Of a DNA stretch of 64,000 bases, positions 6,838 to 64,000 are shown in pieces; the stretch's first letter is position 1; the number at the start of each line of letters is the position of its first letter. The notes beneath the pieces are model-generated. The model had not been told where the DNA came from and ran no database searches. It saw only the letters and a program-made list of their open reading frames with translations. The DNA lies in contig NC_057718.1 in the NCBI RefSeq assembly GCF_004010195.1, positions 105,106,300 to 105,170,299 on the forward strand, written 5' to 3'. This DNA comes from Chiloscyllium plagiosum. Its lineage: Eukaryota. Both the position numbers and the translations under genes were made by a program.

Positions 6838-6963
6838 AAGAAAGTGAGGACTGCAGACGCTGGAGATGAGAGTCGAGAGTGTGGTGCTGGAAAAGCACAG
6901 CTGGTCAGGCAGCATCCGAGGAGGAAGAGAATTGAGGTTTCAAGCATAAACTCTTCATCAGGA
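6838..6963 (-). mobile_element. Short Neptune-like PLE end fragment with decayed hammerhead
   Basis: Reverse strand CTGATGA-AGAGT-TTAT-GCTT-GAAACCTC followed by the shared gatgctgcctgacc...ccagcatctgcag tail. Confidence 0.7.
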
Positions 6964-7396
6964 GAAGAATATGTCAGAGTGTCAGTGCTGGAACACAACC
7001 CTGTTAGACTGTACTATGACTGTCAAAGGTCCTGGAGTTGCCTTATCCTAGGTTGACCTTCCCCATCATGTTGCCATGGAGAAAGGTCAGATTGAGAGCT
7101 TCTGTTGGCAGCCTGATCTCTTCTTTTTCAAGTTGATCATGTCTGCTCCCATAATGAATGCCCTGGTGAGAAGGTTAGTTATTTTATTTGGGGTCTGTAT
7201 ACCACTCATACCAATGTCATCTTTCCCTTGTTTCTTACCTCTGCCCAAATGGACTCTGCAACATTTGAGCCTAGGTCATCTCTCTCATCTGGCCTCGTTT
7301 CAACTCTTATTAATAATGCCCACCCACCACCTGTTCCTCTCGTCGTGTTTCTCGGAAAGGTCAAATGTCCTGAACTTAAAGCTCCCAGTTATTTTT

Positions 7397-7708
7397 AAGA
7401 TTGGATTCCCTACAGTGTGGCAACAGGCCCTTCCGCCCAACAAGTCCACACCCACCCTCCGGGGAGGGAGGGACCCACCCAGACCCATTTTCCTCTGACT
7501 AATGTACCTAACACTTCGGGCAATTTAGCATGGCCAATTCACCTGACCCGCACATCTTTGGGTTGTGGGAGGAAACTGAAGCACCCGGAGGAAACCCACG
7601 TAGACACGGGGAGAATGTGTAAACTCCACACAGACAGTCGCCCAAGGTGGGAATCGAACCTGGGACCCTGGTGCTGTGAGGCAGCAGTGCTAACCACTGA
7701 GCCACTGT
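7397..7708 (-). mobile_element. tRNA-derived V-SINE (HE1-like)
   Basis: A/B boxes, V-domain (gtgtggagttt...ggtttcctcc), CR1-like 3' tail. Confidence 0.85.
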
Positions 7709-7830
7709 ACAGTTTTGATGTTCTTGTAACAATACTTCTGTAATGACTAATTCATTTCCCTTGATGTGTACCATCAATTTGTCCACCTTATTCGGAATGC
7801 TTTCTGCATTAAGATACAAAGTCTTTGAAT

Positions 7831-7955
7831 ATGAAGAAGGGTCACTGAACCCGAAACGTTAACTCTGATTCCTGTCTACAGAAGCTGCCTGACCTGCTAA
7901 GATCTTCCAGCAATTTCTGTTTTTGTTTCAGATCTCCAGCATCCTCAGTTTGTTC
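7831..7955 (+). mobile_element. Short PLE-derived end fragment (variant with GGGT-C-ACTG-A-ACCC stem II)
   Basis: (a)TGAAGA-A-GGGT...ACCC-GAAACGTT followed by the shared tail. Confidence 0.65.
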
Positions 7956-8056
7956 TTTTTCTTTTATCTTTAAATTTGTTCTGTTTTTGAATATCCCTGT
8001 ACATTAATAGTTCCTTGGTACAATATGACACTTACGCTTGTTTTTGTTGGAGATCT

Positions 8057-8319
8057 TTAGATTAGATTAGATTAGATTAGATTACATTACAGTGTGGAAA
8101 CAGGCCCTTCGGCCCAACAAGTCCACACCGACCCGCCGAAGCGCAACCCACCCATACCCCTACATTTACCCCTTACCTAACACTACGGGCAATTTAGCAT
8201 TGCCGATTCACCTGGCCTGCACATCTTTGGACTGTGGGAGGAAACCGGAGCACCTGGAGGAAACCCACGCAGACACGGGGAGAATGTGCAAACTCCACAC
8301 AGTCAGTCGCCTGAGGCGG
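8057..8319 (-). mobile_element. 5'-truncated V-SINE with (ATTAG)n tail
   Basis: V-domain; pentamer tail 8057-8084. Confidence 0.85.
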
Positions 8320-9516
8320 CTACATGATATTTAAGATTATGCACTGTTTGATCAGAGTGAGTCTGTTTAATAACAGACTAAATAGGATATGCTTTTATAT
8401 CTGTATAGCTGGGATGATGTGCCTCTCAACTCCCATTTTGGCTTGCTTTTCTTCTTCATCCTTGCCCTCCACTCCTTTGCTCATCTTCCATTTTGGTAAT
8501 CGTGAGCTTGAAGAGGTAGCTTCTTAGAAGGCCCTGAAAGAGAAAGAAGTGCAAAGCATTATGCAATTTAGCACTTCATCCTTTTCGATTTCTCCTTCAA
8601 TGGTTGCCATCTCTTACTGTTACTTATTGTATCCTGATAGCAGAGCATAGTGGGCATTCCTTGTGGTTTGAAACAATTTTGTAACTAAAGACTGGTGAAA
8701 ATCCCTTGGTAGGATAGCACTTGTGGCTTGAGTGTGATTGTAGATAATCAGTGTTTTGGTTTCACTCCTATCTGGAAAACGGTGACATGTAACCAAAAAG
8801 AGTAATAGTGTTTCCAACTTGTCCCCCTCTTTTCATCCAAATTCTCTTTCCATTTTCCTTGTGCTTTTTGGGAATGTGAACTTGTTACTCAGTGGATTCC
8901 TATTTTGTCTTTATTGATGTGAGATATGTGGGGCAGTTCTCCTATGAAATGAAGACTTCAATGATACAGGCAGCTTCACTTGTTGCCACCTATTAACATA
9001 GGTGCTGCTTGCTTCAATAACTAACTGAGTCAGATCCATATTTTTGCAGTGCCATTGCTTTTTTTATTAATATTTCCAAGATTGTAGTTTATAGAATACT
9101 CTAAATGCCTGATGTTTGTACGTCATATGTGCAGATGTGTTAGGATGGAGGTGATGTGTTCTGTTACCTGGGACATGTGGGGAGTGTGGATTAATTTGAC
9201 TTCTTTGTTCCACAGGTAAAATGTCTTGCAAGTATTTTTAGTTAAATAACTTGTCCAGTCATGGTAAAAGATGCACTGCTGAATTATGCCTATGCAATAT
9301 GTTTCTGGTATTATCTGTACTGGTTTAAATTTGAAACAAAAGAATCTGGTATGTGAACTTTTGGCACCTGAAGAGTTAATCTATCTAATGAAACTTGCCC
9401 TGAAAGTAGGAGAGAATTTAATTATTTACAGTAACCAGAGTTTGGGGTTTAGCTTGAATTGTAAATATTTAATTGCAATATTTTCAAGTGTTAGATTTCT
9501 CCTTCTGTCTTACAAG

Positions 9517-19745: not shown

Positions 19746-19859
19746 AGAGAATATAATGTTGTTGAACTTTGCCAAAGAAGCAGAAGCTTTCAAAAACTAG
19801 ATTTTCAAGGCTACAGGGAAAAGGCAGGACAATGGTATGAGATAAGTTGTTCAACCTAA

Positions 19860-20050
19860 ATAAAAATAGAAATTGCTGGAAAAGCTCAGCAGGTCTGGCA
19901 GTGGGAAACCAGTTTTGGGGAAGGGTAACTGAACTTGAAACATCAACTCTGATTTCTCGCCACACATACTGCCAGACCTGCTGAGTTTTTCCAGCAATTT
20001 CTATTTTTGTTTCTGATTTACAGCATCCATAGTTCTTTCGGTTTTTATTT
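19860..20050. mobile_element. Fold-back PLE-derived short element
   Basis: 19862-19902 is the near-perfect reverse complement of 19968-20008; decayed stem II and GAAAC in the loop. Confidence 0.7.
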
Positions 20051-30442: not shown

Positions 30443-31060
30443 AATGCCTTCCACATGCATCAGAGATTTACCTGCACTTGTCATTTACTGTATCCATTGC
30501 TCCTGATGCGGTCTCCTCTACACTGGGGAGACAGGACGCCTATCTGCAGAGTACTTCAGAGAACATCTCCAGGACACCCGCACCAACCAACCCCACTGCT
30601 CCATGGCCGAACACTTCAACTCGCCATTCCGCTCTGCCAAGGACATGCAGGTCCTGGGCCTCCTCCATCACCACACTCTAACCACCCAACGCCTGGAGGA
30701 AGAACACCTCATCTTCTGCCTTGGGACCTTCCAACCACACAGCATCAATGTAGACTTCACCAGTTTCCTAATTTTCCCCTCCCACACCTTAACCCAGTTC
30801 CAACCTTCCAACTTGGCACTGCTCTCATGACCTGCTAATCTTCCTTCCCACCTATATGCTCCACCCTCCTCTCTGACCTATCACCTTTACCTCCATCTCC
30901 GTCTACCTATCGCACTCCCAGCTACCTACCCCTCTCCCACTTATCTCTCCACCCCCTCTGCTCACAAGCTCCCTTCCTGATGAAGGGCTTTTGCCTGAAA
31001 TGTCAATTTTACTGCTCCTCGGATGCTGTTGGGCTTTTCCAGCACCACGCTCTTGACTCC
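30443..31060 (+). mobile_element. Neptune-type PLE 3' fragment (GIY-YIG C-terminus plus hammerhead tail)
   Basis: AEHFNSP..S.KDMQVLGL...RLEEEHLIF.LGT.QP; CTGATGA-A-GGGC-TTTT-GCCT-GAAATGTC at 30977-31004. Confidence 0.8.
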
Positions 31061-34000
31061 AAAATGTTTCTCAACTCCATTCTCCTGATTTCTCCTTGTA
31101 ACCCTTGATCTTCCTAATCAGGAACCCACCTGTCTCTGTCTTAATGACATTCAATGACTTGGCGCCCACAGTCTTCTGCAGCAATGAGTTCCATGGGTTC
31201 ACCACCCTCTTCACTCTAAATCTTTTATGCGTCATATTCCTGTTTAGAAAATAGTTTACACCTCTATTCTTCCTACCAAAATGCATAACCTCACAATTTC
31301 TCACATTGTATTCCATCTGCCACTGACCTAACCTGTCCAAGACCTGTAGCCTTCCTGCTTCTTCAATGCTATCTGTCCCTCTACCTATCTTTGTATCACC
31401 TGCAAGTTTAGGAATGTTAATGAGCTTCGAGATGATGGGGTGAACTGGATTTGGTGCACATTAGGACATGTATAACTGAGCATTGGGTGAGCATGAAGGC
31501 TGGAAGTTGAGAGGAGTGTGTTGGCATAGTCATGTCTAAGTTGCAAAAGTCACAGAGAAAGGTTTAAGTTACTGAGGAGCTGGATGTTGTTACAGAAATG
31601 AAATTGTCTGTTTCTCTGATGATGTGAATATGTGATTCAAGTATTAATTTAATCAAATGTTGTATTATAAACTTGTGATGGATATATGTTTGTGTCCAGA
31701 AAAAATTTAGTTAAAAATCATGTTAAATGAATCTTTCTTCTTTTGGATTTTTCTAAATGAATGGTACATAGCTGATATCGGTTGACTTTCCATCTAATTG
31801 GCTCAAGCATAATAGGCTGAATGGCTGCCCGCTGTTTCGTATCTTTCAAATATCACAAGGTGATGCTAGGCTAATCCTGTTTATTTTCAGGCAGCTTGTG
31901 AGGTGAATGTATTATTAATAATGTAAATTGTTGATGCCAATTCTGGTTTTTTAAATGATTTTAAATGAGAACAATTGATGAAGGTACTATAGTTCTGTAG
32001 ATGGTGCCTGTAAGATTAACATCTACATTTTAATGCCTGCTTTGAGCAATTAACAGTAGGAGCAGGGACTACACATATTGCTTCTGAAGTGTACGCAGCT
32101 TATAACACAATGTAAGCAGTGGAAGCGGGGCGACTATTCAGCTCTTTGAGCCCACTTCTTATTTTGAATCCTGTGTGGAGGTCACCCTGACGTTTAGTTC
32201 CTGTAGCTGAGGTGAAATGTTGATTACATGCAGCTCCTTGATAGTGTCATTCTGCAATTTGCCAGAATCCATGTGGCAACATGGCAGCCAAGAGCTGAGG
32301 GGAGCCACCAATTTGGCAAGCATCTGGCAATCTGTTGGCTTTGGTTTGATTCTTAATAATTAATTAATTATTTGGAATTCTGCCAATGTTTTACATAATG
32401 TCTTGTCAAATTTCCAGTGAGACTTATGAAATATGTTGCAAGTCTGCTATTGTGGCCATAGATTTATTCTGTCCTCTGCAAAAAAAAGAGTCCCAGTATG
32501 TCTGGTCTCTCCTCTCGGCTAGAGCCTCTTATTCCTGATATCATCCTGTGCACACCTTCTCAATGACCCTTGCGTTCTTCATGAAGGAAAACACCAAAAA
32601 CTGAACAGCATATGCATATTGAAATAATGAATGAGTTTCTATTAATACGGTATTCTAGCTAAGTCTAACAATGATTTGCATAGATTTAGCATAACTTATC
32701 ACTTGCTTGTGCAGTCTGACTGTGTTTGAGACTTCATAAGTTTTTAAAACAGCTTTACCAATCTACCATTCCAGCCAAAGGTTAAATATGTGAACCATCT
32801 CCCACTTTTAAAGTCCTACCCTTGAGGTTGTTCATCCTCTCTTTAATCTTTCATATAAAACATAACATTCTTTATTCCAAAGAGCAATCATAATGGACTC
32901 AGTGTTAACCTTGTTTCTCTCTCCACAGCTGCTGACAGACCAATGGCGTTTCTTTCACACTTTCTGTTCTTATTTCAGATTTTCAGCACTGGCAGTATTT
33001 TGCTTTTATTACCACTCCCACAATTAATTTCATCATTTATCTGCCTGACTGGATGAGATGTCAGTATCTTCCTGAAATTGATTACAATCTGCTTCAGTTC
33101 GTCATGTTTCTTATTTGTGTGACATCTGCAAGTGCTGCAATGCTTCACCAAGTACGCAGGTTCCAAGGATTAATGTATGTTAACTAAGAAGGGGAATGGT
33201 CCCAACGCAGACTGCTGGTGTGCCTCACAGCTTACTTTGTAAACTGTGACAATGTTGCTATTTTGTCAGCATAGATAGTGTGAATATCAGGCTTGCTGAT
33301 GGCTGACTTACTATCCCAGTGGTTTTGGTTTCAGTTTGGCTGATATGGTTCTGTTTTTAGTGTACTGGGCACGCCTAACTGTGTCTTATAACAGCTTAAT
33401 TTTGCATGAATTTGGGCTTTTGCTCATTATTAATTTACCAGATTACTAAGATCCAGAAAGTGTGTTTCTGAAATTAAAAAAATAATTTCAATAAATTGTC
33501 AAACACAATTATTTAGAATTTAATGTTTTTTTGAAGGATTATGTTTGGCTACATTAGGTTTTGTTTTCAATGACTTGTTCGAGAATGTGTTGCTCCAAGT
33601 GTATTATTTTTCTGAAGCTACTAAATATAATGTTTTCGTTTGATATAATTCCCTCTTGCGGGGTGTGTTGAGAAGCTAGTGAAGGAAGCAGTAGGTTCCT
33701 GGGTACGTTATTTTGAAATCCTCTTGTTCATAAAAGGGCCAAGTCTCTCTCTGAGGCAAGTTCAATGATATAAAGTCGTTTCCAAGTGTCGCTTGTTTTC
33801 TCTCAGTTTATACATTGCAGTATGGACAGAGAAAGTCAATAGGCATTAAGGTACCTTTAGTTGTTTTTAGGTCTTACGAAAATGTCCTAGGCAAGTTGCA
33901 ACTGAGAGGCCATATTTATCTCTCAATATTGAGCAGGATTGGAGCTCTGTTCTCTCGAAAAGAGAAGACTGAAAGGTGACCTGAACAAAATATTTCAGAT

Positions 34001-34348: not shown

Positions 34349-34729
34349 GAGGAGAAAGTGAGGTCTGCAGATGCTGGAGATCAAAGTTGAAACTTTATTG
34401 CTGGAACAGCACAGCAGGTCAGGCAGCATCCAGGGAACAGGAGATTCGACGTTTCGGGCACAGGCCCTTCTTCAGGAATGAGCAGAGAGTGTTCAGCAGG
34501 AGAAGATAAAAGGTAGGGAGGAGGGACTTGGAGGAGGGGCGTTGGAAAAGGAGATGACCTGGGGTGTGCAGTGAGAGAGGGACTCACTGAAATCTTTGTA
34601 GAGAGAGGCAGAGAGCTTCTTCAAGGAAGGCATCCTTGTAAGAGGATTCGCAGTAGGTTGAAATCTTCGAGGAGAAAGTGAGATCTGCAGATGCTGGAGA
34701 TCAAAGTTGAAACTTTATTGCTGGAAAAG
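34349..34729 (-). mobile_element. Internally deleted PLE derivative, tandem with 320-bp period, running into a gap
   Basis: gaggagaaagtgag...ctttattgctgga occurs at 34349 and again at 34669. Confidence 0.75.
34444..34479 (-). ncRNA. Minimal type I hammerhead ribozyme motif
   Basis: ATTC-CTGAAGA-A-GGGC-CTGT-GCCC-GAAA-C-GTC-GAAT; 4-bp stem I, 4-bp stem II, GUC cleavage triplet. Confidence 0.78.
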
Positions 34730-36345: not shown

Positions 36346-36639
36346 TTAAAAAGAAATGATTTACATTTTGGTCAATTTACGATTTTGTAAATATGTATGT
36401 TCCAAATTCTCATCAAATACCAATTGGCATTTTCCTGTTGCCCGCTGATGAAGTAATATAGCTGTAACAATAAAATGAGGGTACAGTTATAGTATAGGTT
36501 GCCTAATTGTAGAGTATATCTAAACTGTCTGAATCCCAAAACTATTGTTTGTTTCTGATTTTCCTTTTAAGTCAATGCTACGTTGAGTTTGATTGAGTTT
36601 CTGCTTTTGCTGAGCCAAACAAGGCAACTTGTGTTAAAG

Positions 36640-36769
36640 GAGAAAGTGAGGTCTGCAGATGCTGGAGATCAGAGCTGAAAATGTGTTGCTGGAAAAACGC
36701 AGCAGGTCAGGCAGCATCCAGGGAACAGGAGAATCGACGTTTCGGGCATAAGCCCTTCTTCAGAAATCA
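36640..36769 (-). mobile_element. Short hammerhead-bearing PLE derivative with 9-bp TSD
   Basis: Core CTGAAGA-A-GGGC-TTAT-GCCC-GAAACGTC (36736-36763); TSD gtgttaaag at 36631-36639 and 36770-36778. Confidence 0.85.
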
Positions 36770-37234
36770 GTGTTAAAGAGATGCTGAACTCTTCAAACCC
36801 TTAATCCCTTTAAAACACTGGTTCAAAGTTTGTTTTCCTTGAGTATCACAAGTGTTTGGAACTCTTCTGAAAAGCTGATAGCAGGCATTGAATATTGGTA
36901 AGACAAAGGTAGATGGTTTCTTGTTAAGCAAAGGGGTGAAAAGTGTCAGGGTGAGATGTAGATTTCAGATTACATTCAGGTTCGCCATGGTTTTATTGAA
37001 TATGGAGCAGGCTTGGAGCTGAATGACTTACTCCTGCTCCTTGTTTCTATGTCATGTGATGGATGCAGAGGAATATCAATCAAACTTTATTGTAAAAGAA
37101 TTGTGATCTGATTGCAGATATATATTTAGTTTTAAAGAAGACTGCATGGAGAAAAATTCAGATGCACTTCTAGACAGGTCACTAACCACATTGGATTTAT
37201 TAATTCAGTTTTATCTTTGGTTGGTTTTATCTTC

Positions 37235-37325
37235 CTGAAGAAGGGCTTATCCCCGAAACGTCGGTTCTCCTGTTCCTTGGATGCTGCCTGACCTGCTGCG
37301 CTTTTTCAGCAACACATTTTCAGCT
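37235..37325 (+). mobile_element. Short hammerhead-bearing PLE derivative with 14-bp TSD
   Basis: Core at 37235-37262 (one stem II mismatch); TSD ttggttttatcttc at 37221-37234 and 37326-37339. Confidence 0.85.
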
Positions 37326-38122
37326 TTGGTTTTATCTTCTGCCCTGCAAATAGCTTCCTATGTGCTGTAAATGTTGTACATTTTCTGTGATTCAATCCAA
37401 ACATCATATAAGAACATAATTTTTTCTTATTTCACAAATCATCATACTTCCCTCTCTGTAAAATATCTGTATTCGATTATTTCTAGACTTGAGGTCAATG
37501 AACACCTCACTTAAAACTCCCCATTTGTACAGCTGATGTGATAAGCAGTATCATTGAAACCTATCAATATTTTGAAAATCTGAGTCACGTTTTTGAAATG
37601 CGAGCAAATTTGACATCCTTAAGTTTGCAATATAACTGAATTATGGATACTGCTGTCACTTTCACATAGGGAATGTAAGGGCTTGACTGACTTCCTTTGT
37701 TTAAACATTGTCAAAATAAATTCTATTTCATGTCATTTGGTGAAAATTAACAATAAAACAAGACCGTTACACCCACTAAAATTTTACTTTAGATGTCTTC
37801 ACCCAGAGAATGGTGGGCCTGTGGGATTCACTGCTGCAGAAAGTGGTTAAGGCCACTCGAGCAGGAGGTAAACATAGCACTTGTGGTTAAAATGATCAAG
37901 CAAAATGGGGGGGGGGATGGGGAGGGCAGGATTAGTGTATTGAACTCAATCAACAGCAATGATCATAATGAATTCTGGACCAGGCTTGAGAGGTCGAATG
38001 GCCTACTCAAGAAATTGCTATCAAGAGAAACTGTAAATGCAAGATAAGTTTGTTATTTTTAATTAAGTTATTTTTCTTTTCTATCTGTACAGCTAGGCAC
38101 CTTCTTGTGATGCCCAAGTACA

Positions 38123-38261: not shown

Positions 38262-38926
38262 GTAACCCCAAGACTGCAGCAATTCAAGAAGGCAGTTCAC
38301 CATTACCACCACCCCCAGGGCAATTAGGGCTGGCCTTTCTGGCAACATGTGCATCCTATCATCTAATTTTTAAGAAAATCTTATCATTCCCTTTGCTGTC
38401 TGTCTGTTTGCTACGTACTGAAAGCACACCCTGAATCATATGGATAATTTGGGGTACTCTGTCGGGAATTTCCAACATAAACCTATATTTTTCCCAGAGG
38501 TTTGAAAAAGGGGGTAGGGTAGGAGAATTAGAATGAGAGGAAATCTCTTTCAGACAGCTGGCCCAGGATCAGGATGAAGCTACCAGTCTGTGGTGTTGGT
38601 TTGAATCAGCAAAGGCACAATGAGATTAATCAGCAAATCACTTCGGTGGTGTGTCCTTCTAGTACAATATGAACGTACTTAAAAATTTAGTACTGTCTGT
38701 AAATATTTAGTAAGCTTACTTTGTGTAGATTTTGTGAACTTATACGGAGGGGAAACCGTGTTCCTGAAATTCTGCAGGACAGAAACCTTGAGGATTTAGA
38801 GGATTTGGGTGAAGAGCTCCATTTTTAATAACAGTATTGCTGTAGAATCTATTGCTCCATTTGCAGAATTTGGAAATTGCCCTAAAATTGTACCATGTTT
38901 GGCCTCATTCAATATAATTGGACTTA

Positions 38927-39920
38927 AGAGTCGAAGAGTGTGGTGCTGGAAAAGCACAGCCGGTCAGGCAGCATCAGAAGAGCAGGAGAATCAATGTTTT
39001 GAGCAAAAGTCTTTCCTCTGGAATGAGGCTTGTGGGCCAAGGGGGCTGAGAGATAAATGGGATGGGAATTGGGGCTGGGGGTGGAAGGTAGCTGGGAATG
39101 CGACAGGTAGATGAAGGTGGGGGTGAGGATGATAGTTTGGAGAGGAGGGTGAAGCACATAGATGGACAGGACAGTTCAGTAGGACAGTGCTGAGTTGGAA
39201 AGTTTCAGAGAACATCTCTGGGGCACATGCACTAAACAACCCCACCGCCCTGTTGCCAAACACTTTAACTCCCCCTCCCACTCCACTAAGAACATGCAAG
39301 TCCTGGGCCGCCTCCACTGCCAAACCCTATGCCTGGAAGAAGAACAGCTCATCTTCAGCCTTGTCTCCCTCCAACCACATGGGATCAATGTGGATTTCAC
39401 CAGTTTCCTCATCTCCCCTCCCCCCATCTCATCACAGGTCCAACCTTCCAACTCGACACTGCCCTTTTGACCTGTCCTACTGCAACAGTAGTATACTTGT
39501 CAACTTTAAGGGTATTTAAATGGTCATTGAATAAATATATGGATGATAATGGAATAGTGTAGGTTAGATGGGCTTCAGATTGGTTTCAGGGTGAGAGCCT
39601 GTACTGCGCTGTAATGTTCTATATTCTGTGTTCTATGCACCTGTCCATCTTCCTTCCCACCTATCCGTTCCATGCTCCTGTCCGACCTATCATCTTCACC
39701 CCCACCTCTATCTACCTATTATATTCTCAGGTACCTTCCTTCCCAGCCCCACCCCTCTCCCATTTATCTCTCAGCCCCCATGAGCCACAGGCTTCATACC
39801 TCATGAAGGGCTTATGCTTGAAACATCGATTCTCCTGCTCCTCGGATGCTGCCTGACCGGCTGTGCTTTTCTAGCATCACACTCTTCGACTCTGATCTCC
39901 ACCATCTGTGGTACTCATTT
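38927..39920. mobile_element. Inverted (head-to-head) Neptune-type PLE, interrupted by a CR1 tail (about 39478-39636)
   Basis: FREHL...HFNSPSHS..MQVLG...EEEQLIF; both ends carry the same tail in opposite orientation. Confidence 0.78.
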
Positions 39921-40555
39921 TCTTATAATTGGACTCAAAATGGGACTGTAAAATACACTGACTTCTGTCTTGAGTTTGTAACCGTTGGTTGCCATGTCAC
40001 TTCATCTGCTGTTCACAATGTTCAACTTTCATTAGATGTACAATTGTCTTGCTCCTTCAAGAACCAGTCTGGTGAGAGATCTGATCAGATCATGTCTGAA
40101 ATGATAGATTTCCCTACTTCAATTAAATTTGTCACAATTTTCAATCCATTATTTAAAATGTGCTTGACGTTAACAGTTTCTGCACAAACACAAATATTTT
40201 GATTGCTGCTAAAACACTGTTTTAGTTCAGTAACAATATGCATAGTTTGAATTATTGCTCATTAGAATCACAGACGTACAGTATGGAAACAGGCCCTTTG
40301 ACTTAACTTGTCCATGCTGACCAGATATCCTAAATTAATCTAGTCTCATTTGCCAACACTTGGCACATATCCCTCTAAACCTTCTTATTCATGTACCCTT
40401 CCAGATGCCTTTTAAATGTTGTAGTTGTACTAGCCTCCCCCACTTCCTCTGGCGGCTCATTCCATATACGCACCACCCTCTCCGTCAAAAGGTTGCCCCT
40501 TAGGTCCCTTTTAAATCTTTCTCTTTTTCACCCTAAACCTATGCCCTCTAGTTTT

Positions 40556-48630: not shown

Positions 48631-48666
48631 GAACATGTCCAAACAGATTGATGTCAAACCAAAAAG

Positions 48667-49690
48667 GTGGCACCGTGGCTCAGTGGTTAGTACTACTGCC
48701 TCACTGTGCCAGGGACTCAGGGTTCAATTCCACCCTCAGGTGACTGGCCCTGTAGAGTTTGCATATTCTCCCTATGTCTGCGTGAGTTTCCACCAGGTTT
48801 CCTCCTGAGAAGTGGCAGATGGAGTTTAATTCAGATAAATGCGAGGTGCTGCATTTTGGGAAAACAAATCTTAGCAGGACTTAAACACTTAATGGTAAGG
48901 TCCGAGGGAGTGTTGCTGAACAAAGAGACCTTGGAGTGCAGGTTCAAAGCTCATTGAAAATGGAGTCTCAGGTAGATAGGATAGTGAAGAAGGCATTTGG
49001 TATGCTTTCCTGTATTGGTCAGAGTACTGAGTACAGGAGTTGGGAGGTGATGTTGCGGCTGTACAGGATATTGGTTAGGCCACTTTTGGAATATTGTGGG
49101 TAATTCTGGTCTCCTTCCTATAGGAAGGATGTTGTAAACCTTGAAAGGGTTCAGAAAAGATTTACACAGGCCCTTCTTCAGGAATGATTCCTGAAGAAGG
49201 GCCTGTGCCCGAAACGTCGAATCTCCTGTTCCCTGGATGCTGCCTGACCTGCTGTGCTGTTCCAGCAATAAAGTTTCAACTTTGATCTCCAGCATCTGCA
49301 GACCTCACTTTCTCCTCCGTTGAGGTTAGTACAATTGCAACATTTAAAAGGCATTTGAATGGGTATATGAATAGGAAGAGTTTGGAGGGATATGGGCCGG
49401 ATGCTGGTAGGTGGGATTAGATTGGGTTGGGATATCTGGTCAGCATGGACGGGTTGGACTGAAAGGTCTGTTTCCATGATGTACACCTCAATGTGCAGGT
49501 TAGGGTGGATTGGCCATGCTAAATTGTCCATAGTGTCCAGGTATGTGCAGGCGAGGTGGATTAGCCATGGTAATTGTAGGTAATATGGCCAGAGTGGAGG
49601 GATTGAGTCTGGGCGGGATGCTCTTCGGAGGATTGGTGCAGACTCAACAGGCTGAATGGTCTCCTTCCCACACTTCAGGTATTCTATGAT
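48667..49690 (+). mobile_element. Nested V-SINE (48667-48805 plus 49490-49690) > CR1 (48810-49490) > hammerhead element (49165-49317)
   Basis: SINE halves flank CR1 sequence, which is itself interrupted. Confidence 0.78.
49187..49222 (+). ncRNA. Minimal type I hammerhead ribozyme motif, sense to the VPS54 pre-mRNA
   Basis: ATTC-CTGAAGA-A-GGGC-CTGT-GCCC-GAAA-C-GTC-GAAT. Confidence 0.78.
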
Positions 49691-50110: not shown

Positions 50111-50948
50111 GTAAGAACTTGTCTAATAGAGCCCTTTGTTGAATAGTTGAGAAAATTTGTACATTTGCTCCTAATGGCTGTGAACTTGCTATTTCTGCAA
50201 GCAAGAATTCAGCTGCAGTGATGTGAAACGTAGTTGAATAGCCAGCTCTCTTACCCTTTTACTATTGTTAGAAGTAATATCCTCATATTGTGCAGATTGT
50301 GTTCAAGTTATTTGAAATAATCAACTTTTGAATACAGCAAGTTAAAGCGTAACCTGAGCAAATGTTCATTTCTGACAGGTTGATCTTTTTAAATTCTTGG
50401 ACAACTGCCTGTGCTACACCTTTTGGGATCAGGCAGGCTTGTTTGAAACAACCATGCAGATCAAGTCCTTTCAGCTGGTCTGCGATTTTCATATTTTTCT
50501 GCACAATTTTCATCCTCATAAGTTCATAAGGTATAGGAGCAGAATTAGGCCATTCTGGCCAATTTAGTCTGCTCTGCCATTCAATCATTCACTCTGCTCC
50601 TCACTCGCATTTTCCTGCCTTCTCCCCATATCCCTTCAACCCATTACCAATTAAGAATCTGTCTAACTCTTCCTTAAATTTATTCGCTGTCCCAGCATCC
50701 ACCGTATCCACTGTCCCAGTTACTGTTTGATCTGTTTAGTTGTTGTGAATCAATATTTAATTTCCATCCCCTCCCAACTGTAGCATTTCTTCTACTAAAC
50801 CTGATAACTCCTTTATAAGCATCATGCATTATAAGAATCATACAGTGTAGAAGAAGCCCTTTGGTCCATCGAGTCTGCACCGACAAAATCTTCTCTAAAT
50901 CTCAACAAGTTGCACTTTCCATTCCTAGGCCTAGAACCTCGAATAGGC

Positions 50949-51600
50949 AAAAGTGAGGACTGCAGATGCTGGAAATCAGAGTCTAGATTAGAGTGGTGCT
51001 GAAAAAGCACAGCAGGTCAGGCAGTATCTGAGGAGCAGGAAAATCGACGTTTTGGGCAAAAGCCTTTCATCAGGAATGAAGGCAGGGAGCCTCTGGGGTG
51101 GAGAGATAGTGAAGTCCACATTGATGCCCTGGGATTGAAGTGTTCTGAGGCAGAAGATGAGGCGCTGTTCCTCCAGGTGTCAGGTGGTGAGGGAGCGGCG
51201 GTGGAGGAGGCCCAGGACTTGCATGTCCTCAGCAGAGTGGGAGGGCGAGTTGAAATGTTGGGCCACAAGATGGTGGGGCTGATTGGTGTGGGTGTCCCGG
51301 AGATGTTCCCTAAAGCGCTCTGCTAGGAGGCGCCCAGTCTCCCCAGTGTAGAGGAGACTTCATCGGGAGCAACGGATACAATAAATGATATTGGTGAATG
51401 TGTAGGTAAAACTTTGATGGATATGGAAGGCTCCTTTGGGGCCTTGGATGGAGGTGAGGGAGGAGGTGTGGGCGCAGGTTTTGCACTTCCTGCGGTGACA
51501 GGTCTGGGTGCCAGGAAGGGAGGGTGGGTTGTTGGGCGTGCGTGGACCTGACCAGGTGGTCACTGAGGGAACGGTCTTAGTGGAAAGAGATGGGGAGGGA
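50949..51600 (-). mobile_element. Neptune-type PLE 3' fragment
   Basis: C.RRKCKTC linker and NIIYCIRCSR GIY-YIG start (ORF 51360..51563); tail with mutated hammerhead (GAAA to AAAA). Confidence 0.82.
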
Positions 51601-53338: not shown

Positions 53339-53523
53339 GTGAGGACTGCAGATGCTGGAGATCAGAGTCAAGAGTGTGGTGCTGGGAAAACACAGCAGGT
53401 CAGGCAGCATCTGAGGAGCAGGAGCCTGATATTTCGGGCTTATGCCTGAAACGTTGATTCTCTTGTTCCTTGGATGCTGCCTGATGTGTGCTGTCCTTTG
53501 CCAGCACCATACTTGTGGCTCTG
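53339..53523. mobile_element. Fold-back pair of PLE tails joined at the hammerhead stem II loop
   Basis: Centre tttcgggc-ttat-gcctgaaa at 53432-53451. Confidence 0.72.
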
Positions 53524-55732: not shown

Positions 55733-56938
55733 GTATCCAGATACACAGCTCATGATTTTTTTTGTAAGGTTCTCCTATGCTATTGCTCTGTTGTATTTCA
55801 GATGCGGAAATTTGCATCAGTAGGAATCAAGAGAGATTCCAACTTGCCCGTTCATTTGAGTTAAATAGTCACAGACTTGAAACATCTCTGTTTCTGTCTC
55901 CACAGATTCTGTCTGTACAGCAGAGTATTTTCAGTATTTTGTTTTCATTATACTGGAATGAGCATGCTGTTTTTATGTAGAGGTGGTTTAAATGATGTCA
56001 TCTAGTTCGATTTTCGTGAGAAGTTTAATGAACTTCAATTGAATCAACTCCAAATGTACTGTATTGAGTGCAGGCAAGTGATTAGTGTTTGACTTTGCCT
56101 ATCATTAAGGATTCAGGCCATCAAGCCAAAACAGCCCTCCCCAAAATACATATTATGTACTGTACTTGAGGAATCATTTGATTATTTTTATAAGCCGTTG
56201 TAGTATTGCATTCAAGTAGTCCATCCAATAGATCTAGTAAGTATTCCGAAATGATTTTGCAGTTATTTCTCTTGCCTGTGATGCTTGTAATTTGATGAGG
56301 TCAGGTGCAAGACCAATTTATGGAACTTCTGTTGAGATCAATATACAGTCTATAAATTAAAGAAACTCTGGCTTGGATTTACTGGTTTTATTTGGAACTA
56401 GGATTCCTCAGATTGAGCTGACCCACCTCTTCAAAGTAAGGACTTTGGTTCAAAGTTGGAAAGGTCTGTTTTCAGCATAACTTATCATTTTGCCCACAAT
56501 GTATAGTGGAAGGTGCCCAGTATCTGGGTGATGCACTTTTTCCTCTTTGATTATTCATTACCATAGGTGTTTAAAGATTGTAAATTTGTAAACCTTTCAG
56601 TGGGCGTCCCACAATTATTTCCATGTATTCATGCATAGAAAACTGTATGCTAGCTGGTCTGCTTAGCAGGTGAGAAATCTGTGCTGCAGACCAGATTTGA
56701 GGTGTCCGAAATGACAAAGATAGGGGGTGATGCTGAGGAGGAGAACCATTGACAGTTCCAGATAGAATCAGAAACCAAAGGAGGATCTATAAACTGGATA
56801 GATAGTTCAAAACTAAACATTTATAGCAGAGTATGGCAATACACAAAAAGCTGTTGAACATAATTGTGATTAACCAGATGCCCACATCCAAGTTGTAAAA
56901 TTCTGAGATTTAAATTCTTAATGGATTTTATTTTGCAG

Positions 56939-57324
56939 CTAACACATTATTTAGATGTTGTGGAAGTGAATATAGCCCACCAGATTTCTCTCCGATCTGA
57001 TGCCTTTTTTCACGCTATGACTTCTCAACATGAACTGCAGGACTACCTCACCAAAACCTCGCAAGCCGTAAAAATGCTTCGTGATAAAATTGCCCAGATT
57101 GACAAAGTAATGTGCGAAGGATCTTTGCAAATTTTGAGACTTGCTGTGACTAGAAATAACTGTGTAAAAATGTACAACAAACTAAAGTTAATGGCCACTG
57201 TTCACCAAACACAGCCCACAGTACAATTATTGCTGTCAACCTCAGAGTTTGTTGGGGCACTGGACCTAATTGCAACAACACAGGAGGTGCTACAACAGGA
57301 ACTTCAGGGGATTCATAGTTTCAG
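56939..57324 (+). CDS. VPS54: VPS54 exon 7 (LTHYLDVVEVNIAHQIS...LQGIHSFR)
   Basis: ORF 56921..57328; canonical splice sites; 386 nt. Confidence 0.97.
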
Positions 57325-57864
57325 GTAAGTGATGGTGCAAAGTTCATTTTTCATTAACTCTTTTGCAGATATTTCCTGCATTCTTGAATCTTCTGATGGT
57401 CTGAAATGAAAATTTGCATATAGAAGTTCTGATTTAAAGACAGAAAATGGTGAGAATGCAAAGCAGGGCTATTAGCATTTCAATGAGGTAGGCTGATCAA
57501 CAGTTGAAACTTTATTGCTGGAACAGCACAGCAGGTCAGGCAGCATCCAGGGAACAGGAGATTCGACGTTTCGGGCACAGGCCCTAGATCAACAGACCAG
57601 GTTTGAGACCTCTCCCCAGAAAAATTTTGTCGGGCTGGAGAAGTCCCCTTATAAAATATGATTAAAAACTGGAGAGAGATTGTTTTGACTGCAAGTCTTA
57701 CAGCAGAATCTTTTTTTTCCCAGACATGTTTGTGCTTTGTAACAGAATATTGATCAGTTCAGAATCTCTGCGTAACTTCAGTTTTCATTATTTTCTGTCA
57801 GATGGTCACTTTGGCCTTTTTTAGCAAACTAATTGCAGATTAACGCACCATAGATTAGCAACCT

Positions 57865-58100: not shown

Positions 58101-58128
58101 TGATGGTGTGTCTCAGTACAACAGATGG

Positions 58129-58252
58129 GAGAAAGTGAGGTCTGCAGATGCTGGAGATCAGAGCTGAAAATGTGTTGCTGGAAAAGCGCAGCAGGTCAGG
58201 CAGCATCCAGGGAACAGGAGAATCGACGTTTCGGGTATAAGCCCTTCTTCAG
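58129..58252 (-). mobile_element. Short hammerhead-bearing PLE derivative with 16-bp direct repeat
   Basis: tcagtacaacagatgg at 58113-58128 and 58249-58264; core CTGAAGA...GAAACGTC. Confidence 0.85.
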
Positions 58253-58492
58253 TACAACAGATGGCAATAAATGGTGCAATTACTTGTTGAGTATTGAGAG
58301 TTGAGATAATATTTTCAGGGGAGTTCTGAGCAGCAGTGTGCAGGAGATGAGAATCAGATCTTATAATTTCTCCTCCTGGATTTCCCCTGGTTTGTTTATG
58401 GGCTGTAGGTGTTGTTGACCTTTGCTGCCCATCCCTAACTCCTTTTGAACTGAGTGATTTGCTGGGCCATTTCAGAGATAAGTTAAGAATCA

Positions 58493-58680
58493 AGAACAGA
58501 AATTGCTGGAAAAACTCAGCAGGTCTGGCAGCACCTGTGAAGAGAAAAACAAAGTTAATGTTTCACGTTCAGTGACTTTTGATCAGAACCTTCTCTCCAC
58601 AGATGTTGCGAGACGTGCTGAGTTTCTGCTGCACTTGGATTTTGTTTCAGATTTCCAGTATCCGCAGTTCTTTGTTTTAT
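58493..58680. mobile_element. Decayed fold-back PLE-derived short element
   Basis: Same family and inverted layout as 19860-20050. Confidence 0.6.
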
Positions 58681-59675
58681 ATGACAATCAATTGCATCGG
58701 GTCTGGAGTCACATGGAGGCCAGACCAGGTAAGAATACCTTGCCCACCACCGATGTCAGGCTCGCCAGTCTATAGTACCCTGGCTTTTCCTTACCACCTT
58801 TCTTAATTAATGGCACCCTTCCTGCGTTCTTGAATCTTCTGATGTTCTGAAGTGGAAATTTGCATATAGAAATTCTAATTTAAAGACAGAAAATGGTGAG
58901 AATGCAAAGCAGGGCTATTAGCATTTCAACGAGGTAGGCTGATCAACTGACCAGGTTTACGTCGATTTCACCTGATGCTGCCTGACTTGCTGTGTTCTTC
59001 CAGCCTCCTGTCTGTCTAACCTCCCACAAAAGGCATTTGTGAATTGAAATCAATAGATATTTCATGACCCTATTACTTAGACTAGCTTTCACTTCCATTA
59101 ATTGAATCAAAATTCCATGACCTGCGCTGTGGGATTTGAGCATGTTTAGCAGGGTATTAACGTCTGGTTTATTCATCCATTACCAGTGGGCCATGGTCTC
59201 CACTTGTAGAGTTTATTTGGAATGAGGTGCTTATAAATAAGAACCACGCAGCATTGTGAGTCTTGATTCAAGATTTTCTGGCACAGGAAGAAACCATTTG
59301 TCTCGTTGTGTTGTGTGGGTTTCTATAAGTTGTTGCATCGAGCTCCTTACCTCTCCCATTTGTTATTACTTATCTTTCAAATATTAGTACATTTTCTTTC
59401 CAGGACCTGTTTGGATCCTATTTCATATGGGTTATTTTTAAATTGTGCAAATCTTCAGCTGTGTTTATTTTTGCACCAAGAAATTGTTGCCAAATTTTAA
59501 TAACTTTCCTTCAGTTCCACATTGAGAATTATGGAATGGGGTTAGAGGGCATCAGTCCTTGTTTGTTGTCATTGAGGCTGCTTCATTTATAATTATTTAT
59601 TCAAAGTTTGGGTGAAGATTTGTAGCTCGGGTGCTCGTTGCTGTGGTTCTGTTCGCCGAGCTGGAAATTTTTGTT

Positions 59676-59715
59676 GCAAACGTTTCGTCCCCTGTCTAGG
59701 TGACATCCTCAGTGC
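59676..59715 (-). ncRNA. Minimal hammerhead motif (mirror copy)
   Basis: Reverse complement of 60219-60258. Confidence 0.72.
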
Positions 59716-60218
59716 TTGGGAGCCTCCTGTGAAGCGCTTCTGTGGTGTTTCCTCCGGCATTTATAGTGGCCTGTCCCTGCCGCTTCCGGTTGTCAGTTTC
59801 AGCTGTCCGCTGTAGTGGCCGGTATATTGGGTCCAGGTCTATGTGTTTGTTGATGGAGTTTGTGGATGAGTGCCATGCTTCTAGGAATTCCCTGGCTCTT
59901 GTTTGTTTGGCTTGCCCTATAATGGTAGTGTTGTCCCAGTCAAATTCATGTTGCTTGTCGTCTGCGTGTGTGGCTACAAGCAACATGAATTTGACTGGGA
60001 CAACACTGCCATTATAGGGCAAGCGAAACAAAGAACAGCCAGGGAATTCCTAGAAGCATGGCACTCATCCACAAACTCCATCAACAAACACATCGACCTG
60101 GACCCAATATACCGGCCACTACAGCGGACAGCTGAAACTGACAACCGGAAGCGGCAGGGACAGGCCACTATAAATGCCGGAGGAAACACCACAGAAGCGC
60201 TTCACAGGAGGCTCCCAA

Positions 60219-60258
60219 GCACTGAGGATGTCACCTAGACAGGGGACGAAACGTTTGC
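60219..60258 (+). ncRNA. Minimal type I hammerhead ribozyme motif
   Basis: GCA-CTGAGGA-T-GTCACCT-AGAC-AGGGGAC-GAAA-C-GTT-TGC. Confidence 0.72.
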
Positions 60259-60793
60259 AACAAAAAGTTCCAGCTCGGCGAACAGAACCACAGCAATTAT
60301 TTATTCATTTATGATCATCTAATAAAACAGAAAGCTGAAATTCTAATAAATTGTTTAATACTGTATTTATTAACAGTTTCCTGATTTCTGTTAATGGTCC
60401 ACATAATGAAAGTTTCACAATGGTTGTTCATTTCCGTTGGTGCATTGAAAGTTGCTTCTCGTCTGCTAAGGGACTATTAAATTTGTACATGTTTATTGAT
60501 GTGAATACTCTGTATATCCACTGAACATAATAACACATTGTATACTGCTCAGGATCACCTTTTGATAGAAATATTGTTTTACCAGTAATGGTTTGTAACT
60601 AATGGACATGGCCAAAAGACCCTTTCTAAAACACTGATCACAAAATAAATTGTTACATATTATATCGAATGAATTATTACTAAAAAAAATGTTATACAAT
60701 GTAGACAGGAATGCTTCCTATATAATCCCTGAGTGCGTTTATTTGTTTGAGGTATGTTTGTTTCAGAAATATTTCTACAATTGCATTTTTCAG

Positions 60794-61412: not shown

Positions 61413-61509
61413 CTGCTACTATCCTGCAACAGAAAGCAGCTGATGTAAAAACGGGTGCCTGAATGGATATCACTAAATCCTGAGCTTATTTCACAAAAAC
61501 AGAAGATAA

Positions 61510-61865
61510 GTACACAAGGCCATAAGAAATAGGAACAGGAGGAGATTATTTGGCTCCATGGGCCTGCATCTCCATTCAACAGGATCATGTCTGATCCAGT
61601 ATTCCTCACATCCACTTTGCTGTGTTTTTCCCATAAACCTCAACACCCCTATTGATCAGCAGGACCCTGCCCACACAGTTCTCTGTGGCAAGGAGTTCCA
61701 AAGGCATGTAAACCTTCCAAGAGAAGAAAAACCTCCTCATCCCAATCTTCACTTGGCACCCCTTAATTCTGAGCCCATGCCTAGACTCTTCCATGAGGGG
61801 TGAAATCCTCTTAACATTTACCCTATCAAGCCCCTTAAGCATCCTATGTGTTTCAATGAGATCAC
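61510..61865 (-). mobile_element. CR1 3' fragment
   Basis: ORF 61606..61842 (MLKGLDRV...SRHGLRIKG...RRFFFS). Confidence 0.75.
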
Positions 61866-63331
61866 TTTTTTTTTGTATTCACTCATAGGCTGTAGGCGTA
61901 ATGGCTGGCCAGCATTTTTATTGCCTGCCCTTAGCTGCCCTTGAATTGAGTAGCCTGTGAGGCCATTTCAGAGGGCAGTTGAGAATTATCCACATTGCTG
62001 TAGGTCTGGAGTTACATGTAAGTCAGACCAGGTGAGGGTGGCCAATTTCCTTCCCTGAAGGATGTTAGTGAACCAGATGGGTTTTTCTGACAATCAACAA
62101 TAGTTTGATGGTCATCAAGTATCACTTTTCCCAGTCTTCCCTCATTTAGCCTGAGATGTTACAAATTCAGCCATCTAAATTTCTCTGCAATGTCATTAGT
62201 AATTGATCTTTTTTTTTCTTGCAACCAGAAGAGAATGCCATGTTTAGTCAAATTTTAAGTGTTCAGTTATGTTTGAGGATTTTCAGTACAAGTGCTTCAT
62301 CCTGCTGGGTTGGAATTGAGTAGGAATGTTGTGCGATTAATAGAATTGCTGTGACACAGTAATTTGGAGCTGCGTTGACAAACACATTGTGGAAATGTTG
62401 GAAAATAGTCAAAAATGTCATCGTATGTTGTTATAATCATTGACTTCACGAAGCGGAAACAGTAGCAAAGATATAATTTAATGAACAATGTTCATGTGAA
62501 GGAGGACATTTTAAAAGCTTTATGATCCTGCTCGACTTAGGTTTGTCACAGGCAGGCATTAATAATTTTGGAAGTCCGTAATTTTTAGGTTTTGAAAATA
62601 AAATAACAGAAATTAAAGATACTTCATTGTGCATTATAAGAAAAAATGTTGTTGCAGTCATGGGGATTGTCCTGAGATTTGATTTAAGAGACATGGCCAG
62701 CAATAGGTTTTATTTGCTGTGTAACCTGCTGTCTATCTAACTTGTAAGTGGTTGAAATAAACAGGGGATGTGAGTGTTCTTTTTCCAGCACTGCTAATCT
62801 CTTCCTCCATTTCACTCCGTTAACTGATAATGCAGGGCTGGAGGAGGCTGTGTCTAGTGATTTATTTACCCAGCCACCAAATGAAATAAGCTATTTCTAA
62901 TGAAATTTTGTAATTGCACAATATTTAAACTTGTGTTATCCAATAAGGAAGGGTGCAGCATGTGTTGGGGTGACCGTCCCCATACTCCTGACTGCACATT
63001 TGCCCTCTGCTCCCAGTGTCAGCAAATGAATATGTGGGCAATGACTAGAATAAAATGGTTTCAAATCAAGATGACGTTTCTTCGTACTTCAGTTTCAACT
63101 TGAGATTTTCCAAATTTCATCACGTATAAATTCTGGCTTTTTGTGTAGTCACATTCCAAATATTGAGCATTTCGCTATATTTTCTCTCATATCTTTTTTT
63201 TACTAACTACCTTTGCTGTTAATAAATTTAAGGTAAATTATGTGCTACCTGATTGTGAACTTTACAGAACAGCCTGTTCACAATAAGAAAAGGTTATGTT
63301 GCTTTGTAAATGTATTTATTCTCTCTTAAAG

Positions 63332-63439
63332 GAACGGTTGATTTCTTTGGTATTTGGGTTACTAAGACAAAGGAAGCTCGACTTTCTGGACATCTATCAT
63401 GAAGAGATGATTGCAGCTGCAAAGAACATAATTAAACAG
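63332..63439 (+). CDS. VPS54: VPS54 exon 9 (ERLISLVFGLLRQRKL...KNIIKQ); gene continues beyond window
   Basis: ORF 63296..63505; aag acceptor, cag|gtac donor; 108 nt. Confidence 0.95.
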
Positions 63440-63654
63440 GTACACTATGTTCCCATTAGTATCTTACTATTGTGGGATTTCTGGTATTTTAGATCAAGCT
63501 TTTAATGGAACATATAACTTTTACATCAGTTGATGTGTATCCAATTCATTGAAAGAAAGTCTTCCATAAGAAAGCAGAATAGGCAGTTTGATTTGCAGGT
63601 TTTCAAAATCAAAACTAAATTGAACAATTTTGTAGGAAATGATGATTAGACCAT

Positions 63655-63893
63655 AATATAGAACATTACAGCGCAGTAGAGGCCCTTCGGCCCTCGATGT
63701 TGCGCCAACCTGTGAAACCAATCTGAAGCCCATCTAACCTACACTATTCCATTATCATCCATATATTTACTCAATGACCATTTAAATGCCCTTAAAGTTG
63801 ATGAGTCTGCTACTGTTGCAGGCACTGTGTTTTGCGCCCCTAATACTCTGAATGAAGAAACTACCTCTGACATCTGTCCTATATCTATCACCC
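63655..63893 (-). mobile_element. CR1 3' tail
   Basis: TLRAFKWSL.KYMD and CR1 tail. Confidence 0.8.
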
Positions 63894-63894
63894 A

Positions 63895-64000
63895 GAGAAA
63901 GTGAGGGCTGCAGATGCTGGAGATCAGAGCTGAAAATGTGTTGCTGGAAAAGCACAGCAGGTCAGGCAGCATCCAAGGAACAGGAGAATCGACGTTTCGG
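63895..64000 (-). mobile_element. Short hammerhead-family PLE derivative cut by the window end
   Basis: Near-identical to 36640-36745 and 58129-58234. Confidence 0.8.

Follow-up and report, generated by a model that had tools for sequence, protein, structure and literature searches.

A dispersed hammerhead repeat in the shark Chiloscyllium plagiosum is very probably the end of Neptune-type Penelope-like elements

The repeat examined here carries a small hammerhead ribozyme motif and recurs in a 64,000-nucleotide stretch of the genome of the shark Chiloscyllium plagiosum (NC_057718.1, positions 105,106,300 to 105,170,299; the whole stretch is referred to as the window). The dispersed hammerhead repeat is ordinary biology of Penelope-like elements (PLEs) in a new host and at high copy number. 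Judged from sequence, it is very probably the pseudo-long terminal repeat (pLTR) of autonomous Neptune-type PLEs and not a separate mini-element, because a short copy matches the end of a coding copy and the open reading frame (ORF) of the PLE starts directly after the tail of the repeat. The concentration of 5' ends where the ribozyme begins is a less ordinary feature and may mark the start of the element RNA. The best explanation as a whole, in which the identity of the repeat is combined with the copying mechanism proposed below, is considered probable on balance.

Identity with the end of a coding element

The 131-bp short copy at 49187 was identical at 131 of 131 positions to the 3' end of a coding PLE copy, L165. 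The nearest proteins were those of Chiloscyllium punctatum (71-73% identical), and searching the genome with the Chiloscyllium protein gave 90 scored matches, of which the long ones were 71-89% identical. Four of the 90 were inspected (L163, L164, L165, and L166). L163 and L165 held stop-free frames over reverse transcriptase (RT), a CX4CxxC linker, and GIY-YIG, followed by a hammerhead of subfamily A (subfamilies are described below); in Pfam, RVT_1 scored above the cut-off and GIY-YIG just below it. In both, one ORF combines RT with a C-terminal GIY-YIG and precedes a hammerhead, the layout expected of endonuclease-containing (EN+) PLEs. L164 ended in a subfamily C hammerhead and L166 lacked the 5' half of the hammerhead. 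No single full-length PLE copy was present among the four, and the N-terminus was found only in L164, across a gap. The linker read CNRRRCNTC in L163 and L165 and CHRRKCKTC at 51 kb of the window. A CX2-5CxxC linker defines Neptune and Nematis (PMC8557442), and on this motif the elements are provisionally assigned as Neptune-type, with Neptune and Nematis left unsplit.

Within the window, GIY-YIG remnants at 30.4, 39.2, and 51 kb continued via a pyrimidine-rich 3' untranslated region (UTR) into the hammerhead, and the 51 kb piece scored above the Pfam cut-off for GIY-YIG. A first-pass annotation of the window had tied the repeat to Neptune-type PLEs, a link borne out by the terminal subfamily A hammerheads of L163 and L165. 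The GIY-YIG fragments with a shared tail that it listed are present as remnants, except that 38927-39920 is not a single fragment; it comprises a minus-strand copy (38919 to ~39200) and a plus-strand copy (~39201-39923), arranged head to head. The annotation further described a non-autonomous hammerhead derivative of PLEs resembling a short interspersed nuclear element (SINE) or a retrozyme. Derivation from PLEs stands, but an independent SINE- or retrozyme-like lineage is unsupported. The repeat had no letters of its own relative to the coding PLE end (131/131, with subfamily A compared). As to a SINE head, Rfam gave no tRNA, 5S, or 7SL match on the copies, the A and B boxes of a Pol III promoter not having been searched for. 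Annotators should be warned that such a 'SINE' is a PLE end.

More than ten copies had been reported for the window, and a hidden Markov model (HMM) of the element gave 22 matches there; 16 window copies were aligned. In 20 other stretches, totalling 193,770 unselected bases, the HMM found 34 matches (13 of the 20 stretches had at least one), which extrapolates to ~620,000 recognisable pieces genome-wide. Exact cores with an intact 4-bp stem numbered 86,254 in the 3.56-Gb assembly, a density of one per 41 kb, exact cores with a 5-bp stem numbered 376, and a 42-mer of the subfamily A tail occurred 9,731 times. Reversed-pattern controls gave 0 in every case, so the abundance of the motif (0 versus 86,254 and 9,731) is not due to chance. 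The axolotl carries up to 120,000 canonical hammerheads, and the shark copy number is thus no record.

The hammerhead motif and its subfamilies

Positions are numbered from the first base of stem I (+1), which is 49187 in the 49 kb copy. The 5' strand of stem I (+1 to +4) is followed by CUGANGA (+5 to +11), one extra A, stem II with a 4-nt loop (+13 to +24), GAAA, a palindromic ACGU, the predicted cut after +32, the 3' strand of stem I (+33 to +36), and a tail running to +131 to +133. The cores annotated at 34444-34479(-) and 49187-49222(+) were intact, both reading ATTC / CTGAAGA / extra A / GGGC-CTGT-GCCC / GAAA / C-GT / C17 / GAAT, and C17 fell at 49218, the base predicted for cleavage. The core at 36736-36763(-) was likewise intact, with a TTAT loop; those called near-intact at 37235-37262(+) and 58225-58252(-) had one stem II mismatch each, and that at 30977-31004(+) was found with CpG decay. 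All of the stem II loops listed in the annotation (CTGT, TTAT, TTTT, and ACTG) were present.

The annotation's minimal type I hammerhead, with a palindromic ACGT and an extra base after A9, was also recovered. A core of CUGANGA ... GAAA with an NUH triplet, a palindromic ACGU replacing helix III, and an extra base following A9 are features of the minimal hammerhead ribozyme (min-HHR) of metazoan PLEs (Cervera and de la Pena 2014, PMC4209133). There, dispersed motifs with the extra base and palindrome are described in fishes, coelacanth, Xenopus, and reptiles. As in the shark, these are type I motifs without a stable helix III, with a palindromic 15.2-16.2, an extra base between 9 and 10.1, and a G10.1-C11.1 pair, and they form many consensus families, mostly of single dispersed motifs, including fish Neptune, Poseidon, and Xena. 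The shark motifs differ in host, in number (86,254 exact cores versus ~4,000 in coelacanth and ~9,000 in Xenopus), and in a stem II of only 4-5 bp.

The minimum free energy (MFE) fold of the 36-nt RNA consisted of exactly stems I and II (-7.1 kcal/mol), under energy models that leave the hammerhead core unscored. In free dimer folding, the strands of stem II paired between molecules and ACGU did not, and the MFE gave no support for a dimer hammerhead. No Rfam hammerhead family matched the window at E<=10; recognition of the motif therefore relies on its fold and core letters and not on a curated model.

Several subfamilies had been proposed, and four were distinguished, with compensatory stems: A (CTGT loop), B (TTAT, TCAT, or TAAT), C (TTTT, with CTGATGA), and an older D (5-bp stem, ACTG). 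Stem I changed from ATTC/GAAT to AGTT/AACT between subfamilies (two pairs), and stem II showed G-C to A-U swaps. The annotation had named equal conservation of core and flank between subfamilies as part of the grounds for rejecting its reading. Such equality was not seen: across the four consensuses the core was invariant except at N7 and N17, compared with 3 invariant positions in the next 15 tail bases, a comparison that is partly circular since copies were partly selected by core patterns. Subfamily D copies of the window, which were found by the tail, likewise show the core. A covariation check on 12 hand-picked sequences gave 83% of cells paired and 3 pairs changed on both sides, compared with <=50% in all slid controls; the sequences are related, so the figure is not a probability. 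Because the core is conserved and the stem changes are compensatory, the hammerhead is taken, on these alignments, to be under selection in the source elements. Another old family (L184-L186) had the same core and tail with a different, poorly paired stem II.

Insertion ends and a proposed route of copying

Insertion anatomy was examined in the 59 copies that a tail-only pattern matched first on chromosome 1, a sample blind to the 5' side. Target-site duplications (TSDs) of at least 10 bp (10-17 bp) were found in 37 of the 59, all 3' ends lay at +128 to +133, and no microsatellite target bias was seen in these insertions. The 5' ends were distributed as 7 upstream of -37, 40 in -8 to +14, 5 in +20 to +39, and 7 in +57 to +71; one of the five (L055) was an indel miscall with a true end at ~0, bringing the cluster to 41. 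Expressed as loss per base, this amounts to 6.8% in -1 to +14, 0.34% in +15 to +75, and 1.5% in -37 to -2. Ends near the cut site (+25 to +40) were found in 3 of 59 copies, a loss of 0.37% per base. The steep loss at +1 is referred to as the wall. In subfamily B, 18 of 22 copies had 5' ends at -1 to +4, among the first 40 non-A cores of chromosome 1, a sample of subfamilies B and C selected to reach +5. Genome-wide, 10,600 copies of A and B ended at +2, at least 7,612 ended at +1, and 22,164 reached -2, of which 57 of 100 among the matches listed reached -9; the loss per base at +2 was at most ~26%.

An inverted head-to-head partner was present in 31 of the 59 copies. Seventeen of these partners started at -1 to +2, none extended beyond -1, and 23 ended at +93 to +96, i.e. 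without the last 37 nt. The two 3' ends, ~37 nt apart, correspond to the PLE 'tail', and the same two ends appeared in the run data as loose ends at 34350-34351 and 34379-34388. Raw-read depth fell from 155 to 89 at 34480, in stem I, a step that derives partly from other subfamilies. Low-depth joints at 34549-34550 and 34600-34606 (window 34349-34668) suggest rarer 3' ends further into the ORF start, possibly minor RT starts.

The hallmarks of EN+ PLEs, an inverted 5' copy, a one-sided tail of 30-40 bp, and a TSD, are therefore present. Inverted pLTRs, one-sided tails, and TSDs have already been described (PMC8557442, PMC3846280). As described in PMC8557442, the Neptune clade shares with the shark elements the RT, the CX2-5CxxC linker, the C-terminal GIY-YIG, the 3' hammerhead, 5' truncation, the inverted 5' copy, and the 30-40 bp one-sided tail. 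In contrast to that account, the shark copies lack microsatellite bias (59 insertions), have clear 10-17 bp TSDs, and have 5' ends very tightly clustered at the hammerhead.

These ends bear on the retrozyme-like unit of the first-pass annotation. The copies are single insertions with TSDs, not tandem monomers, and a cleaved or circular unit is unlikely as the usual template because the 5' ends avoid the cleavage site. We consider very unlikely an independent SINE- or retrozyme-like family, whose own short hammerhead RNAs (monomer, tandem, or circle) would spread in trans by means of the PLE protein. Such a family would fit the discrete 130-bp units with TSDs (>=10 bp in 37/59) and the real-looking L102 tandem with 224-bp spacing and its own TSD; each short copy has a putative initiator, and some copies could be secondary sources. 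Tandem retrozymes are PLE derivatives and have been found in the one chondrichthyan sampled (bioRxiv 10.64898/2026.07.22.740005; PMC7229834, PMC6765202). The shark copies, however, have no diagnostic letters relative to the coding element, L102 is the single tandem array in the first 100 listed matches (the gappy assembly may hide arrays), the 320-bp unit described below is unbridged in the run data, and the hammerhead has the minimal form, retrozymes having the canonical one (PMC7229834). Retrozymes without long terminal repeats (non-LTR retrozymes) share with the shark repeat a type I hammerhead, PLE-related sequence, and an occasional tandem, as in L102. They are described as tandem 150-450 bp monomers with canonical hammerheads and, in studied cases, circular RNAs (PMC7229834; bioRxiv 10.64898/2026.07.22.740005), whereas the shark copies occur singly or head to head and are identical to the coding element's terminal sequence. 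Apart from the L102 array, tandem monomers (first 100 listed matches), a separate lineage (subfamily A tested), and a canonical hammerhead with helix III and loop contacts were each lacking in the shark repeat. The L102 insertion (G000:C1:26521700-26522900) is a single one with four hammerhead-tail units, two of them spaced 224 bp, a captured internal ORF piece, and a 13-bp flanking duplication; its tandem could form dimer hammerheads in cis.

A candidate 320-bp retrozyme monomer at 34 kb (tail, ORF start, 3' UTR, and hammerhead) was rejected as probably mostly a gap-filling chimera. At least 40 near-identical matches occur in the genome (the top 40 at 99-100%); an N gap marked the start of all 14 inspected copies, which fell on one or other of two fixed bases, and in 3 of the 14 the Neptune ORF lay across the gap. 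In the run data, depth at the join was at a local minimum, no piece among those listed bridged it, and its loose ends continued into a normal 3' UTR (64 contigs in X1, also in X19 and X15) or a normal ORF (23 contigs). The join at 34548/34549 is regarded as probably a chimera because the copies begin at gaps and no listed piece of the run data bridges it. The join was present in 1 of the 59 unselected copies, and a rare real form of the unit may exist. The chimeric path (34549-34729, L029-L042) recurs beside gaps, and consensuses built from the assembly may hold a false 320-bp element. Three further loci (L005, L050, and L060) share one inversion joint within the 3' UTR, to be explained either by a rearranged sub-lineage that has propagated or by another path of the assembly.

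An initiator-like motif surrounds the first base of stem I: TCA(+1)TTC in subfamilies A and B and TCA(+1)GTT in D. The initiator consensus fits both, and the motif was kept although stem I changed at two pairs between subfamilies. Part of subfamily C combines TTA(+1)TTC with a weaker wall, a post hoc comparison over three families. The letter before +1 was G in 4,145 copies versus A or T in 3,467, a ratio of 1.20 where 0.28 was expected; with the classes typical of head-to-head joints excluded, the ratio was ~1.28 versus 0.24 (estimated from 100 listed rows each). Before +2, G stood in 15 of 100 among the matches listed. Seven of 20 inspected G's were untemplated, present in neither the target nor a neighbouring copy, and an untemplated G before +1 fits copying of the cap, without proving it. 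A G before ATTCC in L001-L008 was discarded as query-biased. A reading of the core ACGT (+28 to +31) as resembling a downstream promoter element (RGACGTGY, PMC2377424) was rejected as two bases out of register. PLE promoters and starts are placed in the pLTR (PMC2377424, PMC8557442), and an initiator-like motif is described in a rotifer pLTR (PMC3846280).

A route consistent with these ends would begin with PLE RNA starting at the initiator, such that the A at +1 is the first base of stem I and the wall corresponds to the RNA 5' end. Within the 5' leader of this RNA, still uncleaved, the protein would begin reverse transcription at internal sites ~95 or 132 nt downstream. The cDNA would be extended until it runs off at the capped end, in some cases gaining a G, and short microhomology would join it either to the target or to another cDNA whose priming took place on the opposite DNA strand. 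An RT start in the 3' pLTR instead would yield the longer, ORF-bearing copies. The element's own protein would have copied the pLTR hundreds of thousands of times. Selection would keep the hammerhead in the sources, its cleavage would probably require a dimer or the help of protein, and the majority of the dispersed copies would be inert. We lean towards this route, in which the copies are run-off cDNAs of the capped, uncleaved leader from two internal RT starts.

The Poseidon element of Anolis carolinensis (PAc) offers a precedent (PMC11167929). It nicks and extends both strands, has two internal RT starts downstream of the hammerhead with a spacing equal to the tail, places insertion ends on these RT starts, and uses uncleaved RNA; its hammerhead cleaves only with protein. 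The shark elements resemble PAc in the two tail-spaced starts, the insertion ends, and, presumably, the uncleaved substrate. PAc belongs to another clade and its ORF starts inside the hammerhead, whereas the shark ATG likely lies ~135 nt past the cut. An ATG at +50 (49236 onward; 34581 region(-)) opens a short upstream frame of ~43 codons, and the main ATG, likely at ~+169, falls within its reach as an overlap; hammerhead cleavage or this upstream frame may control translation.

The main rival, held to be fairly unlikely, takes the short copies as ordinary 5' truncations of the same autonomous PLE source. RT starting from the 3' pLTR would stall at the hammerhead or the upstream pyrimidine tract, and the initiator look and G excess would be side effects. 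Such copies are usually read in this way (PMC4209133, 'probably related to truncated PLEs'; PMC8557442), and truncation would suit the mostly longer copies of subfamily C (11/18) and the A and B copies that end at -2 to -8. An RT arriving from the 3' side would reach the structure at +25 to +40, yet only 3 of 59 ends lie there. Truncation also sits poorly with the inverted partners, none of 31 passing -1, and with a G excess at +1 that is absent at +2.

For the inverted pairs, a somewhat unlikely alternative is that the cDNA folds back at the RNA 5' end and copies itself, the +95 end arising from endonuclease resolution and not from second priming. Self-priming has been proposed for head-to-head pLTR palindromes (PMC3846280), the tail has been ascribed to EN resolution (PMC8557442), and TTC/GAA microhomology occurs at many joints. 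The joints of L148, L150, L152, and L157, by contrast, lack a fitting microhomology, and in vitro PAc extends both nicked strands, with a tail equal to the distance between RT starts (PMC11167929).

Several observations weigh against an RNA start at +1 and the run-off route. Among the 20 inspected G's, 5 matched the target (two of them one duplicated locus), 6 matched a neighbouring copy, and 2 were ambiguous, and head-to-head joints inflate G and A counts alike. Reverse transcriptases can copy the cap as a G, a point for which the literature search gave no confirmation. The wall is not absolute, with a loss of up to 7.7% per base from -2 to -9, and 11 of 18 subfamily C copies run far upstream, the remainder being 4 that end at -3 to +1, 1 at -18, and 2 cut by gaps. 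In Penelope of D. virilis, transcription begins a good distance upstream of helix I, on the far side of an intron. No pile-up of RNA molecule ends anywhere, nor any read ends at the cleavage site, were seen in one raw RNA run, a weak test (single-cell polyA, ~2% read). Stem I was broken in the MFE fold of the 131-nt RNA, and subfamilies B and C have a U-U mismatch in it (pair 2:37 unpaired in 6/10). The samples, furthermore, come from the start of one chromosome in a gappy assembly.

With these points included, it remains tentative, and slightly more doubtful than not, that tens of thousands of copies are natural '5' RACE products' (rapid amplification of cDNA ends) in which the initiator doubles as the 5' strand of stem I. 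Under the same tentative reading, the ribozyme would occupy the initial 36 nt of the capped RNA, a position from which it could decap the element's message; RT would copy only the leader, cap included, from two nicked strands, with the products joined head to head; and a short copy with initiator, ribozyme, and both RT starts could be a trans-mobilised mini-element, a birth stage of retrozymes. The literature search found no shark report of dispersed PLE hammerheads and no report of the 5'-end wall or cap signature, with most subscription journals, Repbase, and Dfam beyond its scope. The copies provide a large natural data set on the role of the PLE hammerhead and the origin of pLTRs, tails, and head-to-head inversions. 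Their junctions point to uncleaved RNA as the usual in vivo template, connect the end that lacks the tail with the inverted arm, and give a single-base prediction of where transcription starts.

Copies and other features of the window

Table 1. Copies of the hammerhead repeat and related PLE features, in window coordinates
Feature	Position	Strand	Remarks
Subfamily A (CTGT loop) short copy	49187..49317	+	hammerhead 49187-49222; predicted cut after 49218; tail to distal RT-start end; inside a CR1-like long interspersed nuclear element (LINE) remnant
Short inverted head-to-head hammerhead stub	49165..49188	-	
Subfamily A copy	34349..34548	-	69 nt of PLE 3' UTR, hammerhead 34444-34479, tail; 198/200 identical to L165
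Tail and PLE ORF start	34549..34729	-	adjoins assembly gap; join at 34548/34549 probably chimeric
Subfamily B (TTAT loop) short copy	36638..36767	-	core 36736-36763; 9-bp TSD
Subfamily B short copy	37231..37328	+	proximal (~+95) 3' end; 14-bp duplication; one stem II mismatch
Subfamily B short copy	58128..58252	-	starts at CTGA; 16-bp duplication overlaps its start
Subfamily A copy	57500..57585	-	starts at stem II (~+12), ends at ~+97; 9-bp duplication
Subfamily B copy	63895..64000	-	truncated by window edge
Older decayed short copy	6839..6963	-	9-bp duplication
5'-truncated Neptune-type PLE	30443..31066	+	GIY-YIG remnant, pyrimidine-rich 3' UTR, core 30977-31004, partial tail
Head-to-head composite, minus and plus copy	38919..39923	.	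minus arm: 3' UTR, decayed hammerhead, tail; plus arm: GIY-YIG remnant, inserted repeat ~39480-39630, 3' UTR, hammerhead, tail
5'-truncated Neptune-type PLE	50948..51600	-	CX4CxxC linker, GIY-YIG, shortened 3' UTR, TTTT-loop hammerhead, tail
Head-to-head pair of short copies	53339..53523	.	joint inside stem II; adjoins gap
Older subfamily D copy	7824..7960	+	5-bp stem II, ACTG loop, GTT triplet
Subfamily D head-to-head pair	19859..20043	.	decayed
Subfamily D head-to-head pair	58480..58673	.	decayed
Second-family hammerhead	27428-27469	+	
Second-family hammerhead	60218-60259	+	
Second-family hammerhead	59675-59716	-	
Second-family hammerhead	25743-25782	-	
Second-family element	~25705-27545		
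Second-family element	~59600-60296		

An unrelated second PLE family, absent from the first-pass annotation, was also present in the window. It is Penelope/Poseidon-like, with GIY-YIG in the absence of the CX2-5CxxC linker, and has its own minimal hammerhead: CTGATGA or CTGAGGA, an extra T, a longer bulged stem II, GAAAC-GTT, and a 3-bp stem I. A perfect hairpin at 26751-26845 matched Rfam mir-3910 at 46.7 bits, below the cut-off of 95; the hairpin is the head-to-head joint of inverted ORF copies of the second PLE.

The genes of the window are a Pellino-1-like gene (Pfam Pellino), with its last exon at 17084-17746(+), and Vps54 (Vps54_N domain), with an exon at 56870-57328(+). A GC-rich stretch at ~28750-29240, between the two genes, may be the Vps54 promoter. 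A tandem repeat of ~30-bp units at 52231-52735 adjoins the gap at 52736-53338.

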